From a virus, in IMG/VR virus record IMGVR_UViG_3300017917_002765, positions 72,576-136,575 of that record: a DNA stretch of 64,000 nt. One strand, written 5' to 3'. The translations under genes were made by a program, and so were the position numbers. Below are positions 902-63,655 of this stretch, piece after piece. Within the stretch, counting starts at the first letter, position 1; each line of letters opens with the position of its first letter. Below the pieces are notes generated by a model. It saw only the letters and a list, made by a program, of their open reading frames with translations. It did no database searches and was not told the origin of the DNA.

Positions 902-1516
902 TTATGCTTTTAACCAAGCGTAAAATTGATTGGTTTTAGCTGTTCTATCATCCAAACCATGTGTTCCACCATTTATTTTTTTGGTAATGGATAAAATTGT
1001 TTCCGCATTTACACCTTTATCAGCAATTTCCCATAATTTATTTTTTGTAAAGAAAAACATAGCTGATTCAAAAGATAATTCAGTTGCAACCAATTCTGGA
1101 TTTGTCATGATTTCTGGTTTGTTTAAGTGTTCTGATAATTGTCTATAGTTGTCTTTACCAGTTGTTTGTAAGGCACCTCTACCTCTGAATAAAAACCCTT
1201 CTTTTGATGCTTCGTTACCATTTCCCATTCTATTGGCATAAACTCTAGATGCTATTTTTTCTGGATTTTTAGCATATAATTCAGCTAAATTACCTGGAAA
1301 ATACTTAGTAAAAACTTTATTTAAACCATCCACCGAATAATTTAAATTTTCAGTGAATGTTGAGTAATTTCCAGTTTCATGTGCTGTTTGTCCAAAAAAG
1401 TGTGCAGCTCTTTCTGGTGTTAGGTTAAAAAAAGCAGCTGCTTTTTTCAAAGTAGTTGGTCCAAATACACCATCAGGTGTGACACCAATTTTTTCTTGTA
1501 GTTTTTTTAAACTCAT
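902..1516 (-). CDS. GH19 (chitinase-like) endolysin with short N-terminal peptidoglycan-binding segment
   Basis: LQEKIGVTPDGVFGPTT (PG_binding-like); AHFFGQTAHETG (catalytic Glu); ENLNYS; FRGRGALQTTGKDNY; ITKKINGGTHGLDDR. Confidence 0.93.
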   Translation of the reverse strand: MSLKKLQEKIGVTPDGVFGPTTLKKAAAFFNLTPERAAHFFGQTAHETGNYSTFTENLNYSVDGLNKVFTKYFPGNLAELYAKNPEKIASRVYANRMGNGNEASKEGFLFRGRGALQTTGKDNYRQLSEHLNKPEIMTNPELVATELSFESAMFFFTKNKLWEIADKGVNAETILSITKKINGGTHGLDDRTAKTNQFYAWLKA

Positions 1517-1539
1517 GGCTTTTGTTTTAGGTTTATTTA

Positions 1540-2217
1540 TTATTCTTTTTTATCGGATGCATATTTAACACCCATTATTGTACCGACAATACTAAATGCA
1601 TTAGTTAAAAGAATACCAAACATGTTGCTCCATGTTGAACCAATTATTTGTGTTTCTTTATTCATAAAGATAGCAACTAAATATAAAATTGTTGTTGTTA
1701 TTCCAACTCCAACGATTACATATAAGGCACTTTTAACTATTGTATTGATGAGTTCAAATTGAGTTTTCTTTTGAAGGACATCTAAATCGTTTTCAACATT
1801 CTTTTTAGCGTTTTCAGCTTCCTGTCTTGCCAATTCAGATTTTTTCATTTCTTCAACAAGTTCTCTACCAATTCTTTCATTATCTTCTTTCCAAGCAATC
1901 AATTCTCTATTTTGCAATTCAATCTGATTTTTTGAATCTTCAACACTTTTTAGTGTTTCTTGGATTTCAACCATCATTTTCTCGTTTTCATTATTAAGGT
2001 CAGATAACTCTTTATTTTTTGTTTGGATTTGTTTTGTCATTTCCAGACGTTTCTTACGAACTTCTTTATCTCTAGTAAAACAATCATCAAGATACTTCTT
2101 GAATTCTTCGTCACCAGATGAATCAATTAGTCTAATAATATTACCTTCTAACCCTATATTTTTTTTATTATATAGTTCTATAAGGTCTTTTCTAGTTGTT
2201 TCATCTAACTGTATCAT
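1540..2217 (-). CDS. Coiled-coil protein with two C-terminal transmembrane helices (holin/lysis-regulator candidate)
   Basis: Long heptad region at about aa 50-155, then TM1 (ALYVIVGVGITTTILYLVAIFM), TM2 (MFGILLTNAFSIVGTIMGV) and a short charged tail. Lies directly upstream of the endolysin; its start overlaps the receiver gene stop (TAATG). Confidence 0.6.
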   Translation of the reverse strand: MIQLDETTRKDLIELYNKKNIGLEGNIIRLIDSSGDEEFKKYLDDCFTRDKEVRKKRLEMTKQIQTKNKELSDLNNENEKMMVEIQETLKSVEDSKNQIELQNRELIAWKEDNERIGRELVEEMKKSELARQEAENAKKNVENDLDVLQKKTQFELINTIVKSALYVIVGVGITTTILYLVAIFMNKETQIIGSTWSNMFGILLTNAFSIVGTIMGVKYASDKKE

Positions 2218-2648
2218 TATTTGTAAATTTTAAAAGGTGCCGTTCTATTCTTATAGCCTTTGTAATCTTTTTTAAATTCCTCTAGTCTTGGTTCTATTTC
2301 GTCTGACTTAATAATCCAGAATTGAGCACCAGCTTGAATTGCTTTAGCTTGTTCTTCTGATTCGTTTGATGAAGAAATAATACCAATTACCACATGGTTA
2401 CCGTATTCAAAATTGATTCGTCTAATTAATTCTATACCATCAAATGATGAACCAATTATGTTTAAATCAACAAATACACATTCTGGTTTGTCTTGCGGGT
2501 CCTTATACCATTTCTTAAACAATTCAGCAGCTTCATCTGAACTCTTTAACGTTTTAAGTGATAGTGTAATGTCTAATAGACTGCAACAGTCTTCAAAAAC
2601 TAAGTGGAATAAATCCTCATCATCCACCAACAACAATGAATCAATCAT
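2217..2648 (-). CDS. Single-domain CheY-like response regulator (receiver only)
   Basis: LLLVDDED acidic pocket; VFVDLN phosphoacceptor Asp; DGIELI; IGIISSS; AGAQFWIIK conserved Lys. No output domain. Confidence 0.92.
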   Translation of the reverse strand: MIDSLLLVDDEDLFHLVFEDCCSLLDITLSLKTLKSSDEAAELFKKWYKDPQDKPECVFVDLNIIGSSFDGIELIRRINFEYGNHVVIGIISSSNESEEQAKAIQAGAQFWIIKSDEIEPRLEEFKKDYKGYKNRTAPFKIYK

Positions 2649-2649
2649 T

Positions 2650-3777
2650 TTAATTTGTTTTATTTAAGTTTATTGTTATTTTTGTACCAATTTCCAATTT
2701 TTCGGAAGTTATTTTAAATCCGTGTTCCTTAAGTATTGCAACACATATATTTAACCCTAAACCGCTGCCACTTTCTTTTTGACCTTCTTTTCTTGTATAA
2801 GGTTTTGATAGTTTTAAAAACTCTTCTTGTGTTAAACCTCTACCATTATCTTGTATTATTATTTCATTAGGATTTTCAAAATAAACTTTAACTATTTTAG
2901 TACTACTGTCATTATATTTCAAACCATTTCTAATCAAATTATCTATTGCAGTACAAAATAATGGTTCATTAACTTCTATTGTGGGTAAACTATCATCTAA
3001 GATTACTTGAGAAACATATGCTGTCGAGGACAAATAGTCTTTGAGAATGTCTTTGATATTACACATAGTTTTTGTTAGACAAGCATCTTTTTTAACTAGA
3101 TTTGTAAATTCATAAACACCTTTATAAACCTTTTGAGTGTGTCTAAGCCCTTCTTTAATCATTTTCATAGGGGCCTCTATTTTAAGATTTTCAATATCTT
3201 CTGGTTTTAATCTACGTTCAAGTGAACTTAATCCTCTTGGTATGTAAGTGTTGATACCAGAGTGCATATCGTGACGTATGATTTTAGCAGCGTGTTCTAA
3301 ATAGGTGTTTTTTCTCTCTATTTCATCTTTTGCAGCCATTATTTCGGTAACGTCTTGTCTAATAGAAACAAAACCTTTAAGACTTCCAATTTCATCAAAT
3401 TCTGCTTTAATAAAAGTGTCTACATAATATAATTCACCATTTTTTGTTTTATTGATACAGACACCATTCCATATTTTTTTATCTTTAAGAACCGTTTTGT
3501 ACATTTCAAACCACATGTCCTTTGGATGAATACCAGAATTGAGAATATTATGGTCTTTACCTATAACTTCATGCAATTTCCACCCAGATACAATTTCAAA
3601 CTTTTTGTTAACATATGTTATCTTACCATGTTTATCAGCTTTGGTTATAATAGCAGCTTCATCAATAAAAGCTTCTAGTTCACGCAATTCTTTAACAACC
3701 TTATCATTCTTAATAAATGATGTTAAAGCATAGAGATTGCATTTAAATTTATTAAAAAAATTTTTAAAAACTTCCAT
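2650..3777 (-). CDS. Soluble PAS-domain sensor histidine kinase
   Basis: PAS (ITKADKHGKITYVNKKF...WNGVCINKTKNGELYYV...SIRQDVT); H-box IIRHDMHS; N-box DNLIRNGLKYN; G1 IQDNGRG; G2 GSGLGL. No TM helix. Confidence 0.93.
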   Translation of the reverse strand: MEVFKNFFNKFKCNLYALTSFIKNDKVVKELRELEAFIDEAAIITKADKHGKITYVNKKFEIVSGWKLHEVIGKDHNILNSGIHPKDMWFEMYKTVLKDKKIWNGVCINKTKNGELYYVDTFIKAEFDEIGSLKGFVSIRQDVTEIMAAKDEIERKNTYLEHAAKIIRHDMHSGINTYIPRGLSSLERRLKPEDIENLKIEAPMKMIKEGLRHTQKVYKGVYEFTNLVKKDACLTKTMCNIKDILKDYLSSTAYVSQVILDDSLPTIEVNEPLFCTAIDNLIRNGLKYNDSSTKIVKVYFENPNEIIIQDNGRGLTQEEFLKLSKPYTRKEGQKESGSGLGLNICVAILKEHGFKITSEKLEIGTKITINLNKTN

Positions 3778-3825
3778 TTATACTAACAAACTATTTACTT
3801 TTTTATTTTATAACCTTTGTCACTT

Positions 3826-3833
3826 ATAAATAT
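3826..3833 (-). promoter_or_regulatory. Putative late-promoter motif ATATTTAT upstream of the kinase-receiver-endolysin operon
   Basis: Recurrent intergenic motif on the coding strand, about 50 nt upstream of ATG 3777 and just downstream of a terminator. Confidence 0.6.
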
Positions 3834-3844
3834 CTTTATAAAAT

Positions 3845-3873
3845 AAAAAACCCCCTAAATTAGGGGGTTTTTT
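3845..3873 (-). terminator. Intrinsic terminator
   Basis: aaaaaaCCCCCTA-aat-TAGGGGGtttttt hairpin with A/T tracts on both sides. Confidence 0.85.
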
Positions 3874-3892: not shown

Positions 3893-5821
3893 TTACAAAT
3901 CACCATATTTTTTCATCTCATCATAGATTTTTTCTGCTCTGTCAATGGCTTTCATTGATTTGTCTTTTGCAATTGATGTATAAATTTCATCATCTGGAAC
4001 GTCAATCATTTCACCTTTAACCATAATTTTGAATTCATCTCTAGCATTTGAGAATAATTTGAAACCTTCATCATCCATTGATGTTGAAGATGGCACCACA
4101 AGGTCTTCTTCATCATCAGCTTTTATGTCAGTTGGTAAATCGGTTTTAAAATCACCAACTTCTGGTTCTTTTTCGTCAGAATCGTTATCATCAGATTTTG
4201 CCCAGTTGCTATCATCAGCTGGTTCTTCTCCTTCTTCGTCATCGATTTCTGGTTCAGATGGTAAGTCAGAAAATTCTTCCTCTTCTTCCTCAGTTACTTT
4301 TTTTTTTGAAAGTTCTTCCATGTATTCTTTCATCATAGATTCTTCATCCATTGGTTCTTCATTCATAAGGTCAAAAGTTTCATCCATCATTTTACCTTCT
4401 TCTTGTTCTTCTTTAGCCTCACTTTTCATCCAACCTTCTTTTGTTTCTGTTTCATCCTTTCTTTTTTTAGAATAACAACCAACAACACAAGGTTTTTTAC
4501 CTTCTTTTTCTTTATCTTCAGAATTTTTTTTCACTATACTTGATGAACCGTCTTTATTATTTTTATACTCATAATCTTTTTCTTTTTCTTTGGTTTCTTT
4601 AAGGTGAACGTGTTTTTTAGCTTCTGGTGCTTGTGAAACATCAGCATCTTCCCAGTGACCTTCTTTTGGTTTAGCATCTGATTCAATGTTTTTGCCAGAT
4701 GAACTCTTCATAGGCTTCTTAGCTTCTGGAGCGTGAGAAACAGCCTTATCAGGGTTTCCATCTTTACTCTTAGCAATAGGGGAATCTTTCTTAACAGAAC
4801 CTGACACATGCTTGGTTGATTCAGCAGCTTTTTTGGTTTCTTCATCCCAATTACCCTCTTTAGCATCAGCACCTTCCATATCTTCTGATTCAGTCATCAA
4901 AGATTTGGTTTTATTCCAAATATCACCAAAAATTTTATTTTCATCAAGTCTTTCTTTACCTTTTAAAACACCAAGAGTTTCATGTGATTTATAACCAAAT
5001 AAGGCTTTCATTCTGTTAATATCTTCATTAACTAAATTTTGGTCAGCAGCAGTTAACACAACAGCTTTACCTTCGTTTAATGAACCTTCCCAACGGATTT
5101 TGTATGATTCGTTTCCATCAGTCATTTCAAATATTTTGTTATTTACTCTATACGCTTCTGGGATAAGTTTTAAAGCGTTTCCAACACCATTAAATGGGTT
5201 TTTGAATTTTAATCTTTTCATGGTTTCTTTTATTTGTGGTTTATTGTTATCGTCTTTTTTTACATCACTTTCATTTACAGCTGAAAATCTTGTATTTTGT
5301 AAATTAGGTCTCGATTCGTTTTCTACGTCATCACCAAAACTGTAAAGTCCTTTTTCAGCATCAGCTCTTTTCTTGAATGAAGCTTTAATATTCTTCACCA
5401 AGTTCTTACCAAATTCTGGTCCTTGAAATCCTTTTTGTTTTTCAACAACATTAGCCCATTCAGGGTTATTACCCATATTTGAACTACCTTCAATAGCTTC
5501 TATAGCTCTTTCTTTAAATCTTTTATTTGGTTCTGAAGCATATTGAATCATCTCTTGACCGTTCATGATTTCCATTTGGTCATGATATGTCTTTTCAGAC
5601 TCATAATCGTAGTTAAATTTATTAGGCGCCATTTGGTTGGCGTTAGGGTCTTCCTTAACAGCCTTTTCAAATTCAGCAACCTTTTTTTCTATGTCTTTAA
5701 CACCATCTTTGTTTTCTTTAGCCGATTTTTTCTTAGCAGCATTTGTTACAGAAATACCTGGAGTAACTTCTTCTGATAAGAATTTTTTTGCTAGGTGTTT
5801 TTTAATTATGTTTTTGTTCAT
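3893..5821 (-). CDS. Acidic, low-complexity 642-aa protein; putative inner-head/prohead core protein
   Basis: Many (L/I/M/V)-x-E sites, an NEDINRMKALFGY motif, three internal ~19-aa repeats and an acidic C-terminus; preceded by ATATTTAT. Confidence 0.55.
   Translation of the reverse strand: MNKNIIKKHLAKKFLSEEVTPGISVTNAAKKKSAKENKDGVKDIEKKVAEFEKAVKEDPNANQMAPNKFNYDYESEKTYHDQMEIMNGQEMIQYASEPNKRFKERAIEAIEGSSNMGNNPEWANVVEKQKGFQGPEFGKNLVKNIKASFKKRADAEKGLYSFGDDVENESRPNLQNTRFSAVNESDVKKDDNNKPQIKETMKRLKFKNPFNGVGNALKLIPEAYRVNNKIFEMTDGNESYKIRWEGSLNEGKAVVLTAADQNLVNEDINRMKALFGYKSHETLGVLKGKERLDENKIFGDIWNKTKSLMTESEDMEGADAKEGNWDEETKKAAESTKHVSGSVKKDSPIAKSKDGNPDKAVSHAPEAKKPMKSSSGKNIESDAKPKEGHWEDADVSQAPEAKKHVHLKETKEKEKDYEYKNNKDGSSSIVKKNSEDKEKEGKKPCVVGCYSKKRKDETETKEGWMKSEAKEEQEEGKMMDETFDLMNEEPMDEESMMKEYMEELSKKKVTEEEEEEFSDLPSEPEIDDEEGEEPADDSNWAKSDDNDSDEKEPEVGDFKTDLPTDIKADDEEDLVVPSSTSMDDEGFKLFSNARDEFKIMVKGEMIDVPDDEIYTSIAKDKSMKAIDRAEKIYDEMKKYGDL
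4607..4862 (-). repeat. Three degenerate peptide repeats inside the 642-aa protein
   Basis: KEGNWDEETKKAAESTKHV / KDGNPDKAVSHAPEAKKPM / KEGHWEDADVSQAPEAKKHV. Confidence 0.7.
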
Positions 5822-44922: not shown

Positions 44923-47427
44923 TTATTCACCTTCTAAGGCTTCTCGTCTAGCTTTTGAAGCTATAAATACTTCTGCTGCCCTATTAACACCAGCCCTTTC
45001 AACATCTTCACGGTGTTCTACACGTGTTCTACCAACCTTATTTTGATTCATGTCAATTTGTATTTTTGCATTATCAAAAATAATGTCTTCGAATATGATA
45101 CCGTCCTTACCGAAACGTGATTTAAGAATAGCCATCGTAGCGGTTCCAGCATCTTTTTGGTCAAGATTCTTTGCTATAGACACAATAAAGTGACCTATTT
45201 GACCTTTCTTGATTGAACCACCCATTTGGTCAGCTTCTACTACGTTTGCTTTTATAGAACTTCTGTTACCTTGCACGGCTGTCCATCCAGCTACATCTAA
45301 CTCAGCTAACATTGATTCAAATTGACGCATTACACTACCTTCACCAGAGAATATGTCATCATATTGTCTAGATGGTTGTACACAATCAATGTAGTCTAAT
45401 AGAACAATATCTGGTCTAAAACCTTCAGCAATTTTTTTTCTGATGTATTGTCTAATCATAGGCATAGTAGTTCCATCACTAGGAAACTTTTTAAGCTTTA
45501 AGATACCTCCACCAGATTTTGATTCTAATTCTTTTTTAACACACATATCAATAATCTCATCCTTATGTAATGCAAGACTATTAAGGTCAATTCCAGACCA
45601 ACAAGCTAAGTGTTTTCTCTGGATAACTTTTGGGTTGTCCTCAAAGAATATTTGTAAAACATTGTGACCATCGTTTACAGCAGTGTTAGCAAGCTTGGTA
45701 ATCATGGTGGTATTATGCGTTACAATATAATCATCAGTAACGTATAAATGTTCTGGGTTATCAACCATAATACATTTAGCATCCTCTTCACCAAAATATT
45801 CAATAGATTCTATAAATTTATTTTCAGAATATTTTGTTCTAGGTTTAAATTTATTTAGTTTTCTAGCTAATCTACTTGGAACAACACCATTATCTGGAAA
45901 ACTGAAAGTAATTCGATAATATGTTTTACAAAATGTATCACCATACTTACCAATTTGTTCAGTTATTGACACCCTACCACCTAATGATAGAATTAATTCT
46001 CTAATACCAATTGATAAATTTTTAGAAACCGTGGATATCTCAAGCCTATGTCCGTCAACATACCCATCAGTGTCAACTAATCCTTGTAATAAACTAACCC
46101 TATCAGACACTGATGAGTAAAGATAATCTGTTGGTATGAATTTAGAGGTGGAATTACTACCATACAAATTAAGCTTAACCAATGAGTCTTTAATACCCAA
46201 TAACGAAACCTTAATTAATGAGCGTTTGATTAATACTAATTCACCATCAACGTCTTTTTCAATATTTCTATTTTGTTCACTAATTGAAATATTCTTATAA
46301 ACTTTATTAACTTCAGAAATGATTTCATTATCTTTAGTAACAAAATGTGGTTGATTTGACGTTGTTATACAACCATCACCAAGAATTACACCTAATAAAT
46401 ATGGGTCAATTATTAACTCTTTTTTGTTGAATTCAACTGGTGATACGATAGGAATTTTATAATTTAACCTTTTACCATTCCAAACCTTAACATTATTAAC
46501 CATATCAATAGTTTTCATCACTTTAAAAGAGTTGTCTGATTCTAAATAAATAATCTTACCATCTTTTTTAGTTTTCCTATTTCTTTGGTTAATAGTGTTA
46601 ACACTCCATAAATGTTCAGCGTCACACAATGTTTCTGTACCATCATTTATTTTAACCTTATATATCGGCCTTTTACCTTGTGAGAAAACACCAATTACTT
46701 TTGTAGGCTTACCATCTCTACTAATAACATATTCACCAACATTAATTTCACCCATTGTTTTCCAACCATTTGGTGTTAATATTTTAGAAAACAATGGTTG
46801 AGCTTTACCAACACCAAATGGTGCAAGTATTACCGCCAATTCACCCTTAGATAAGCCACCGTCCATGACTTCATCCAAACCCTTGATACCAGTTCTTATT
46901 GGTTTCCTAAAATCATCAACCAACACATTATCAATATTATCAAAAATATCCATGCCATCATCTTTATTGTCACCATGTTCCAATGCTTTCCTTAAAATGG
47001 TTTCACATTGTTCATAATTTTCAATATCACCAACATCTATGATTTTTTGAATTTGTTTGATTGATTTTTTTAATTCTTGTTGTTTGCAAAATTTCATTGC
47101 GATGTCTTGAACTTTAAGACCATCATATGAACTAGCTTCTTGAATCTTGGCTAATTGCTTAATAATATATTTTCTTTGTATATCATCAGTCACGCTTTCA
47201 AACAATCTAAACTTAATACTTCCCATATCTGGGACAATATCATCTTTTTCTTTAGCTTCTTTTACAGTGGCAGCAATTACTCTTAGATAAGAATCGCTAA
47301 AATAATTTGGGTCGACTATATCTATAATAGCATTTGCGAATTTTCTATCTATTAACAGTTGAGCTATAAGACGAAATTCATAGTCTATACCCAAAAAAGC
47401 TAAATTATCTCTGTTTATCTTTGCCAT
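44923..47427 (-). CDS. dnaB: Replicative DNA helicase (DnaB / T4 gp41-like) containing an intein
   Basis: Walker A APFGVGK|T split by the intein; LLDYID; WTAVQGNR; ILKSRFG. Confidence 0.92.
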   Translation of the reverse strand: MAKINRDNLAFLGIDYEFRLIAQLLIDRKFANAIIDIVDPNYFSDSYLRVIAATVKEAKEKDDIVPDMGSIKFRLFESVTDDIQRKYIIKQLAKIQEASSYDGLKVQDIAMKFCKQQELKKSIKQIQKIIDVGDIENYEQCETILRKALEHGDNKDDGMDIFDNIDNVLVDDFRKPIRTGIKGLDEVMDGGLSKGELAVILAPFGVGKAQPLFSKILTPNGWKTMGEINVGEYVISRDGKPTKVIGVFSQGKRPIYKVKINDGTETLCDAEHLWSVNTINQRNRKTKKDGKIIYLESDNSFKVMKTIDMVNNVKVWNGKRLNYKIPIVSPVEFNKKELIIDPYLLGVILGDGCITTSNQPHFVTKDNEIISEVNKVYKNISISEQNRNIEKDVDGELVLIKRSLIKVSLLGIKDSLVKLNLYGSNSTSKFIPTDYLYSSVSDRVSLLQGLVDTDGYVDGHRLEISTVSKNLSIGIRELILSLGGRVSITEQIGKYGDTFCKTYYRITFSFPDNGVVPSRLARKLNKFKPRTKYSENKFIESIEYFGEEDAKCIMVDNPEHLYVTDDYIVTHNTTMITKLANTAVNDGHNVLQIFFEDNPKVIQRKHLACWSGIDLNSLALHKDEIIDMCVKKELESKSGGGILKLKKFPSDGTTMPMIRQYIRKKIAEGFRPDIVLLDYIDCVQPSRQYDDIFSGEGSVMRQFESMLAELDVAGWTAVQGNRSSIKANVVEADQMGGSIKKGQIGHFIVSIAKNLDQKDAGTATMAILKSRFGKDGIIFEDIIFDNAKIQIDMNQNKVGRTRVEHREDVERAGVNRAAEVFIASKARREALEGE
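45712..46803 (-). mobile_element. 364-aa class 3 (Ala-start) intein with LAGLIDADG homing endonuclease in the helicase P-loop
   Basis: Starts AQPLFSKILTPNGW and ends YVTDDYIVTHN|T. WCT triad: CDAEHLW, AKCIMV, VTHN. LAGLIDADG motifs LLGVILGDG and LLQGLVDTDG. Confidence 0.92.
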
Positions 47428-63549: not shown

Positions 63550-63655
63550 AGTACTTTTTCTTAATAAATACTATTCTACCTCAATTTTTATCAAAATAAA
63601 TGATTGGAATTAAAATATAAAATACATAATAATAAATATATAATATTATATAATA

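Follow-up and report, generated by a model that had tools for sequence, protein, structure and literature searches.

The timing of lysis is a main determinant of phage fitness, and its known adjusters are holin/antiholin clocks and lysis inhibition of the T4 type. Class II holins and pinholins such as S21 68 have two transmembrane helices in an N-in/C-in arrangement, a short charged C-terminal tail and helix faces of small residues. In the PBSX-type cassettes of Bacillus, XhlA, a protein of about 90 amino acids (aa) with a coiled coil and one C-terminal transmembrane segment, precedes the holin and the endolysin. In staphylococci, streptococci and Bacillus the LytSR two-component system governs the holin-like membrane proteins LrgAB and CidAB, and in the CheA-CheY-FliM and DivJ/PleC-DivK pathways a phosphorylated stand-alone receiver binds a short segment or domain at the N-terminus of the protein that it targets. 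Published work describes the holin-antiholin likeness of the cid/lrg proteins (PMC6997555), and lysis inhibition in T4 by way of the holin T, the periplasmic antiholin RI and the antiholin RIII on the cytoplasmic side (PMC11413866, PMC8385771). Here we describe a four-gene cassette in IMG/VR virus record IMGVR_UViG_3300017917_002765, in which a histidine kinase (HK), a stand-alone receiver (RR) and a membrane protein (TM) are encoded directly ahead of an endolysin (LYS). The stretch analysed, called the window throughout, is the final 64 kb of this 136,575-bp record, whose CheckV completeness of 39% implies a phage of jumbo size.

A description of phage-encoded two-component or sensor-linked holin/antiholin control of lysis was not found in the literature searched, which lacks most subscription journals, and an earlier note on this DNA had likewise known of none. 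The terms 'kinase' and 'response regulator' have 0 occurrences in the main text of PMC9723584.

The conserved kinase, receiver and membrane protein genes

All four genes are located on the minus strand, where the earlier note had placed them. HK (2650..3777, 375 aa) and RR (2217..2648, 143 aa) were identified from their open reading frames (ORFs) and Pfam matches, TM (1540..2217, 225 aa) from its ORF, hydropathy and an AlphaFold2 (AF2) model, and LYS (902..1516, 204 aa), a GH19 endolysin, from its ORF and Pfam/PHROG matches. The spacing is also as it had been given. The two-component pairing is seen as a gene pairing, with a gap of 1 nt between the HK stop, which ends at 2650, and the RR start at 2648; the RR stop and the TM ATG overlap by 1 nt at base 2217 (TAATG), and 23 nt separate the TM stop (1540) from the LYS start (1516).

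Viral-contig scans returned 317 stretches for TM and more than 569 for RR, and the relatives were collapsed to 90 distinct TM-gene sequences. RR is adjacent to or overlaps TM in 86 of the 88 informative loci, and 78 of the 90 relatives have HK at most about 3 kb upstream of RR. It lies directly upstream in 56, behind an insert of 0.15–1 kb in one and of more than 1 kb in 21, and is absent in three; the position falls at contig ends in nine, which were excluded from judgement. Judged from such gene and sequence comparisons, kinase, receiver and membrane protein very probably form one signalling path.

TM consists of an N-terminal domain (N-domain, residues 1 to about 60, with a LEGNI motif), one long helix (37–184) and a C-terminal hairpin of two transmembrane segments, TM1 and TM2. 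Profile searches identified proteins in which the hairpin is kept and the N-domain exchanged. In P0169 and P0171 the place of the N-domain is taken by two PAS domains or one, followed by a coiled coil and the hairpin of TM, while P0137 has a GAF domain, a coiled coil and two transmembrane segments and shares the TM2 sequence with TM. The PAS domain of the fusion is 48% identical (1e-36) to the PAS next to the DHp domain of a relative's kinase, and the GAF domain of the other is 56% identical (5e-82) to the N-terminal GAF of a kinase. The PAS fusion is widespread, occurring in 253 viral stretches. Neither RR nor HK was found in PAS-fusion loci (0/80) or in GAF-fusion loci (0/3). Because the receiver adjoins where the N-domain is present, and HK and RR are both gone where a sensor is fused, the hairpin appears as the common output of three kinds of input. 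This natural domain swap is the strongest evidence for a single path from HK through RR to TM with the hairpin as its output, and the hairpin would most likely be a lysis regulator or a holin. The swaps also make a model of lysis signalling directly testable.

The earlier note had named the coiled coil of TM as the receiver's target. A likelier target than the coiled coil as such is the conserved N-domain of about 60 aa, which is found together with the receiver and gives way to PAS or GAF in phages that lack it. A complex prediction of RR with TM residues 1–155 lends weak support to the proposed contact, scoring 0.36 against 0.00 for the best of three controls; at least 96% of the contacts are shared between runs, and the partner has a predicted local distance difference test (pLDDT) value of at least 86. 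In the benchmark, 58 of 80 solved complexes reached the mark for a complex, as did 2 of 110 mismatched pairs; at scores of 0.60 or less only seven of those 80 reached it, along with both passing mismatches. These counts hold only roughly for the alignments of our own used here.

Properties of the four proteins and of the upstream region

In the AF2 model of TM (pLDDT 86) a small N-domain leads to a helix that continues as far as the first hydrophobic segment; after it come a short loop and the second transmembrane helix. Hydropathy places the two hydrophobic segments at 156–174 and 199–217, which leaves a predicted cytoplasmic part of 155 aa and a short, charged tail (KYASDKKE). Mean column identity of the protein is 69%; the LEGNI N-domain is conserved, and TM2 is almost invariant (W196-S-N-x-F-G-I-L-L-T-N-x-F-S-I-x-G-T-I-x-G-x-K-Y). 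Searches of Pfam, NCBIfam, PADLOC and the PHROG lysis families assigned TM to no family and placed it in no described holin family, and its sole PHROG match is a weak one to a family of unknown function (E 0.005). Foldseek matched TM to no PDB structure at E 0.001 or better, and Atlas structure rows outside TM's own family have TM-scores of at most 0.28. A large protein collection contains 7607 homologues at E 0.001 or better, mostly unnamed or called 'hypothetical protein' and otherwise named inconsistently, and the nearest Atlas clusters are 94–100% viral. A profile search among 1.84 billion representatives retrieved only 262 clusters, and the family is confined to a phage group. The coiled coil was also considered as a Spo0B-like His-phosphotransfer domain, which was rejected as the protein has no histidine.

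Pfam matches in HK comprise a PAS domain (9.7e-8, about 42–145) and HATPase_c (5e-14, 274–373). A DHp domain carries H169; Pfam HisKA gave no match in HK, and the PhoR model aligns to residues 29–366. The features of a DHp phospho-acceptor His and of a Bergerat ATP-binding domain are present, as seen from the HATPase_c match and the invariant boxes. The H, N and G boxes, described as intact in the earlier note, are indeed so and are invariant in 68 sequences: H169 in RHDMHSG, N280/N284, D310-N311-G312-x-G314 and G339-L-G-L, which we take to be these boxes from their consensus motifs. The kinase is soluble, with no hydrophobic segment by hydropathy. The nearest models of its PAS domain are NifL PAS1 (4.3e-20), DibA and YtvA, all below cut-offs, and from the PAS subtype a flavin- or redox-type ligand would be a guess. 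A LOV photoreceptor was rejected, given that the position that we presume to be that of the flavin-adduct Cys reads His in GKDHNILNSG.

The transmitter is invariant among the kinases of relatives, and the sensor part ranges from 353 to 712 aa, with PAS domains in 64 of 68 and GAF domains in 20 of 68. In one sub-lineage (L035 2014–5557, L024 2399–5552 and L132 2166–5996) the kinase has two N-terminal transmembrane segments, and two genes are inserted between HK and RR. The product of one is about 200 aa long and has a signal-like N-terminus, and the other encodes a coiled-coil protein of about 440–484 aa with a central transmembrane segment; these may be envelope-side accessories of the sensor.

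RR matches Response_reg at 2.4e-9 (37.8 bits against a cut-off of 30.2) and is a stand-alone receiver of the CheY type, its 143 aa holding a receiver domain and no output domain, as previously proposed. The DD/D/S/K residues, which we assume from consensus motifs to be D9, D10, D61, S92–94 and K114, are intact and invariant in 78 sequences. The protein carries a conserved C-terminal tail of 28 aa and is the most conserved part of the set, with a mean column identity of 86% over the 78 sequences, tail included, versus 69% for TM.

LYS matches Glyco_hydro_19 (PF00182) with 28.3 bits against a cut-off of 25.5 and the endolysin family phrog_181 at 1.3e-55, and its gene has 72.6% DNA identity to a gene of Flavobacterium phage immuto annotated as endolysin; domain matches and annotation thus agree on a GH19 endolysin. 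A signal-less endolysin reaches the cell wall only through a lesion in the membrane. LYS has neither a signal peptide nor a signal-arrest-release (SAR) segment, its highest 19-aa hydropathy being 0.56, in line with the earlier note, and because of this it needs such a lesion to reach the wall.

The terminator reported ahead of the cassette is real. The sequence AAAAAACCCCCTAATTTAGGGGGTTTTTT at 3873..3845 (minus strand) forms an intrinsic terminator, a bidirectional hairpin with a 13-pair stem, five G-C pairs and a T tract, which ends the upstream gene of a 642-aa protein and stands before the operon. Six terminator-like sites were found in the region versus 2.0 +/- 1.5 in shuffles, and similar hairpins precede the kinase gene in many relatives. 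The 642-aa protein itself (3893–5821, minus strand, directly upstream of the terminator) is very acidic, lysine-rich and of low complexity, has no family match, and has relatives in two loci only (L004, L127).

The motif ATATTTAT (3826..3833, minus strand) is located 56 nt upstream of the kinase ATG. Eight of its 20 minus-strand copies in the window lie at most 120 nt upstream of minus-strand gene starts, zones which make up 8.6% of the window, and none of the 56 permutations of its letters is more upstream-biased. A terminase-like gene and a baseplate-wedge gene are among those that it precedes. It occurs upstream of HK in 30 of 66 relatives versus 3.4% of background 150-nt windows, often with a terminator directly ahead of it, and several of 25 such upstream regions inspected carry GTATTTAT in its stead. 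The earlier note had taken 3826–3833 for a putative late promoter. The recurrence and upstream bias of the motif speak for this, and from them we can fairly infer a candidate phage-specific promoter element that is probably late.

The eight upstream copies in the window (minus strand, at 63639, 47466, 41700, 23724, 23698, 11067, 5845 and 3833) stand 13–90 nt upstream of genes, three of them immediately after a terminator hairpin, and the base before the motif is G in seven of the eight (AG in five). A host-type Bacteroidota promoter (TTG-N18-24-TAnnTTTG) was not found upstream of the kinase, with 19 minus-strand matches elsewhere in the window, and a sigma-70 scan performed no better than shuffles (25 vs 28.5). 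The T4-type late motif TATAAATA was tried and showed no upstream bias (1/15 copies).

Link to lysis and rival explanations

Linkage to lysis was counted with GH19, GH24 or M15 genes taken as endolysins. In the RR-linked set 55 of 90 loci have an endolysin. It lies no more than 3 kb away in 49 and is adjacent, with its start at most 400 nt downstream, in 27; among loci with at least 5 kb on both sides the count is 32 of 46. The PAS-fused set has an endolysin in 45 of 57 loci, adjacent in 28. An absence of such linkage in related phages would have counted against the earlier note, and with an endolysin at 55 of 90 loci this is not what is seen. In many relatives the adjacent GH19 protein is longer (275–278 aa) and its gene starts 11 nt after that of the membrane protein. 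The fusions stand in lysis cassettes as well. At locus L193 a 103-aa ORF with two transmembrane segments, the PAS fusion, GH19, Phage_holin_4_1 (4.8e-6, above cut-off) and small transmembrane ORFs occur together; L205 has spanin-like ORFs, the PAS fusion, a 104-aa ORF with two transmembrane segments, a GH24 lysozyme (3e-43) and an M15 peptidase (2e-21), and L246 the GAF fusion, two small transmembrane ORFs and GH19. The other genes flanking the cassette in the window recur in only 2–3 of 157 loci, and complete relatives have at most one GH19 match per genome of about 300 kb. The link to endolysins is therefore not a matter of inherited block order. What the earlier note saw as wiring into lysis is partly supported by this recurrent linkage and by the fusions in lysis cassettes, and is qualified by a linkage that is not universal.

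From these comparisons it is probable, though by no means assured, that the phage encodes a signalling path with a membrane-hairpin output acting in host lysis. The soluble PAS kinase would sense a cytoplasmic cue, autophosphorylate on H169 and hand the phosphate to D61 of the stand-alone receiver. The receiver would dock on the small N-terminal domain of the 225-aa membrane protein, and the change would pass down a coiled coil of about 110 residues into the invariant two-helix hairpin. The packing of TM1 and TM2, or the pairing of the hairpin with other membrane proteins, would be altered as a result, setting the time at which the signal-less GH19 endolysin reaches the wall. The phosphotransfer, the binding of the receiver, the effect on the membrane, the signal and the late timing are steps that we infer.

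Several observations weigh against this picture, in part against the role in lysis and in part against the roles given to the hairpin and the receiver. Neither GH19, GH24 nor M15 is found at 14 of the 46 well-flanked RR-linked loci or at 7 of the 24 PAS-fused ones, and in G003, a relative that is 71% complete, about 59 kb separate the GH19 gene from the module, and no membrane proteins are encoded beside that gene. The complete genome G002 has no GH19, GH24 or M15_3 match, so that linkage is not judgeable there. Other candidates for the holin are present. A 70-aa ORF with two hydrophobic segments, a candidate small holin, lies about 1 kb past the endolysin on the minus strand, 79 nt before the window's first base (G000:C1 about 72285–72497; L163 12286–12498), and is kept at 60–70% identity in a like relative place in the three nearest relatives (L003, L004, L127). 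Another sub-lineage has an 83-aa ORF with one transmembrane segment after the endolysin, and Phage_holin_4_1 or ORFs with two transmembrane segments occur in 35 of 57 PAS-fusion loci and 7 of 90 RR-linked loci; neither this record nor three complete relatives contain Phage_holin_4_1.

TM itself has two transmembrane segments, the KYASDKKE tail and a 23-nt gap to the endolysin, but at 225 aa with a 155-aa cytoplasmic part it fits no known holin family. Holins tend to evolve fast, and TM2 is conserved far more than would be expected of one. The weak RR-TM complex score also belongs here, as do two findings on the N-domain. The T4-like-lineage loci L077 and L081 (records 74% and 14% complete) have an N-domain protein and no RR was found in them. 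In the metagenomic proteins P0245, P0256, P0261, P0263 and P0268 the N-domain and the start of the coiled coil are fused to a kinase core (DHp and HATPase), from which it follows that the N-domain is a general input module whose partner need not be this receiver. Viral contigs yielded no relative of the fusion P0261, and its matches among representative genomes were confined to kinase cores.

Two side observations concern these relatives. Near the N-domain protein, L077 (4364–4738) and L081 (6334–6708) contain a 124-aa ORF that may be a late sigma factor of the T4 gp55 type. In the complete 322-kb relative G001 (L010 6700–8500) about 1.8 kb downstream of the TM gene holds no convincing ORF on the gene's strand, the only strand considered.

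For the membrane protein, proposed in the earlier note as a holin or lysis regulator, the lysis context is supported and the identity as a holin is putative, with rival small transmembrane ORFs present; it is no less likely to be a regulator or an antiholin. Supposing that the path acts on lysis, it is doubtful that the hairpin is the holin itself, and a sensor-driven antiholin or holin activator working with the nearby small membrane proteins is somewhat more likely. Equally tentative is the idea that the coiled coil and two-helix hairpin constitute a new class of gated holin, opened by a cytoplasmic input that would be a phospho-receiver in jumbo phages and a fused PAS or GAF domain in smaller ones. 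If that were true, many freshwater phages of the Bacteroidota type would read the redox, energy or small-molecule state of the host to time lysis.

A real path could instead serve another late or membrane process, such as controlled depolarisation or ion leak in taking over the host, superinfection exclusion or control of a host envelope machine, with the endolysin nearby only as part of a shared region of accessory envelope genes. The invariance of TM2 across phage lineages is as expected for a conserved host membrane partner, and the 14 well-flanked loci with no nearby endolysin, the distance of about 59 kb in G003, and the relatives with a membrane-anchored HK and genes for two exported or membrane proteins ahead of RR would all suit such a function. 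All three wirings of the module are nevertheless found in lysis cassettes, in the company of endolysins of three families, a Pfam holin and spanin-like ORFs, and 27 of 90 RR-linked and 28 of 57 PAS-fused loci have the endolysin directly alongside, which makes this explanation rather unlikely.

Improbable, and more so than the last, is that the receiver acts mainly on host targets, namely partners in two-component signalling, motility or secretion, and that TM is an anchor, a sink or a phosphatase-like scaffold. Single-domain receivers often have several targets, and the strong conservation of RR, tail included, fits several binding partners; the complex prediction with TM is weak. Against this, overlap of the RR and TM genes is seen in almost every relative, and phages devoid of RR retain the hairpin, joined to PAS or GAF, so it has a function of its own downstream of sensors. 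That the phage captured kinase and receiver from a host and makes no use of them, their position being fortuitous, is an idea for which one may cite that no RNA run was found to contain the stretch, but it is scarcely credible given invariant catalytic residues, coupling in 86 of 88 informative loci, thousands of homologues (7607 for TM; more than 569 stretches for RR), nearest Atlas clusters that are 94–100% viral and no sign of pseudogenisation or relaxed selection.

If a path that acts on lysis is real, it would be a new route in which post-translational signal transduction is brought onto the lysis machinery by a kinase-receiver pair or by a fused PAS or GAF domain. With 7607 homologues the TM family is large, and such a path may help explain how huge phages in lakes fit their burst to the physiology of the host. 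It could also yield a tool, a membrane lesion protein gated by a ligand or by phosphorylation.

Source record and comparison with known systems

The window has a G+C content of about 29%. At the DNA level only the endolysin gene matches cultured phages (Flavobacterium phage immuto and Cellulophaga phage phi14:2). A pond metagenome run contains 0.93 of the sampled words of the stretch; it is the sole run with most of it and possibly comes from the source sample. A further eight runs, from freshwater or lakes, share only small parts, which have no bearing on habitat. Ribosomal_S21, the marker of the bS21-phage clade, gave no match in this 39%-complete record. An 834-aa protein elsewhere in the window (44923–47427, minus strand) matches terminase-large-subunit PHROGs over residues 198–579 and DnaB-like helicase PHROGs over 574–788, and may be a fusion or contain an intein-like insert.

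Comparison with T4 lysis inhibition suggests a likeness in function, in that lysis timing would be set by a signal and proteins would bind the soluble domain of a membrane lysis protein. However, there is no sequence relation, and kinase, receiver, PAS and GAF domains are all missing from the T4 system. What T4 senses is superinfection, and it does so in the periplasm, whereas the input proposed here is cytoplasmic and would arrive through a phosphorelay or a fused sensor.

In its apparent logic, two-component control tied to membrane proteins of a lysis type, the system also resembles LytSR with LrgAB/CidAB. LytSR is bacterial, LytR binds DNA and LytS is a multi-pass membrane sensor; the present system is phage-borne, with a soluble kinase and a receiver that has no output domain. 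Neither a LytTR output nor a LytS-type sensor was found, RR being receiver-only (143 aa) and HK soluble with a PAS domain. Control here would presumably run from protein to protein instead of through transcription. In its stand-alone receiver, and in the mode of action proposed for it, the cassette resembles CheY and DivK. Unlike in those pathways, the putative target is a phage-only hairpin protein encoded beside an endolysin, and neither a CheA-type kinase nor motility genes accompany it.

On the membrane side, TM is like the class II holins in its predicted N-in/C-in hairpin of two transmembrane segments, its charged KYASDKKE tail, its place directly ahead of the endolysin and the spaced G/S/T residues of TM2 (G201, T205, S209, G212/T213 and G216). 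It is unlike them in its 225 aa, its 155-aa cytoplasmic input part, the lack of any holin-family match and its invariant TM2. With XhlA it has in common a soluble coiled-coil N-terminal part, a C-terminal membrane anchor and a place in the lysis cassette; it differs in having two transmembrane segments and a proposed sensor input, whereas XhlA has no known sensor input, and XhlA (PF10779) gave no Pfam match in TM at E 0.01 or better. On the evidence of gene content and sequence, HK-RR-TM-LYS is a putative case of signal-controlled phage lysis, a member of neither the T4 nor the LytSR type.

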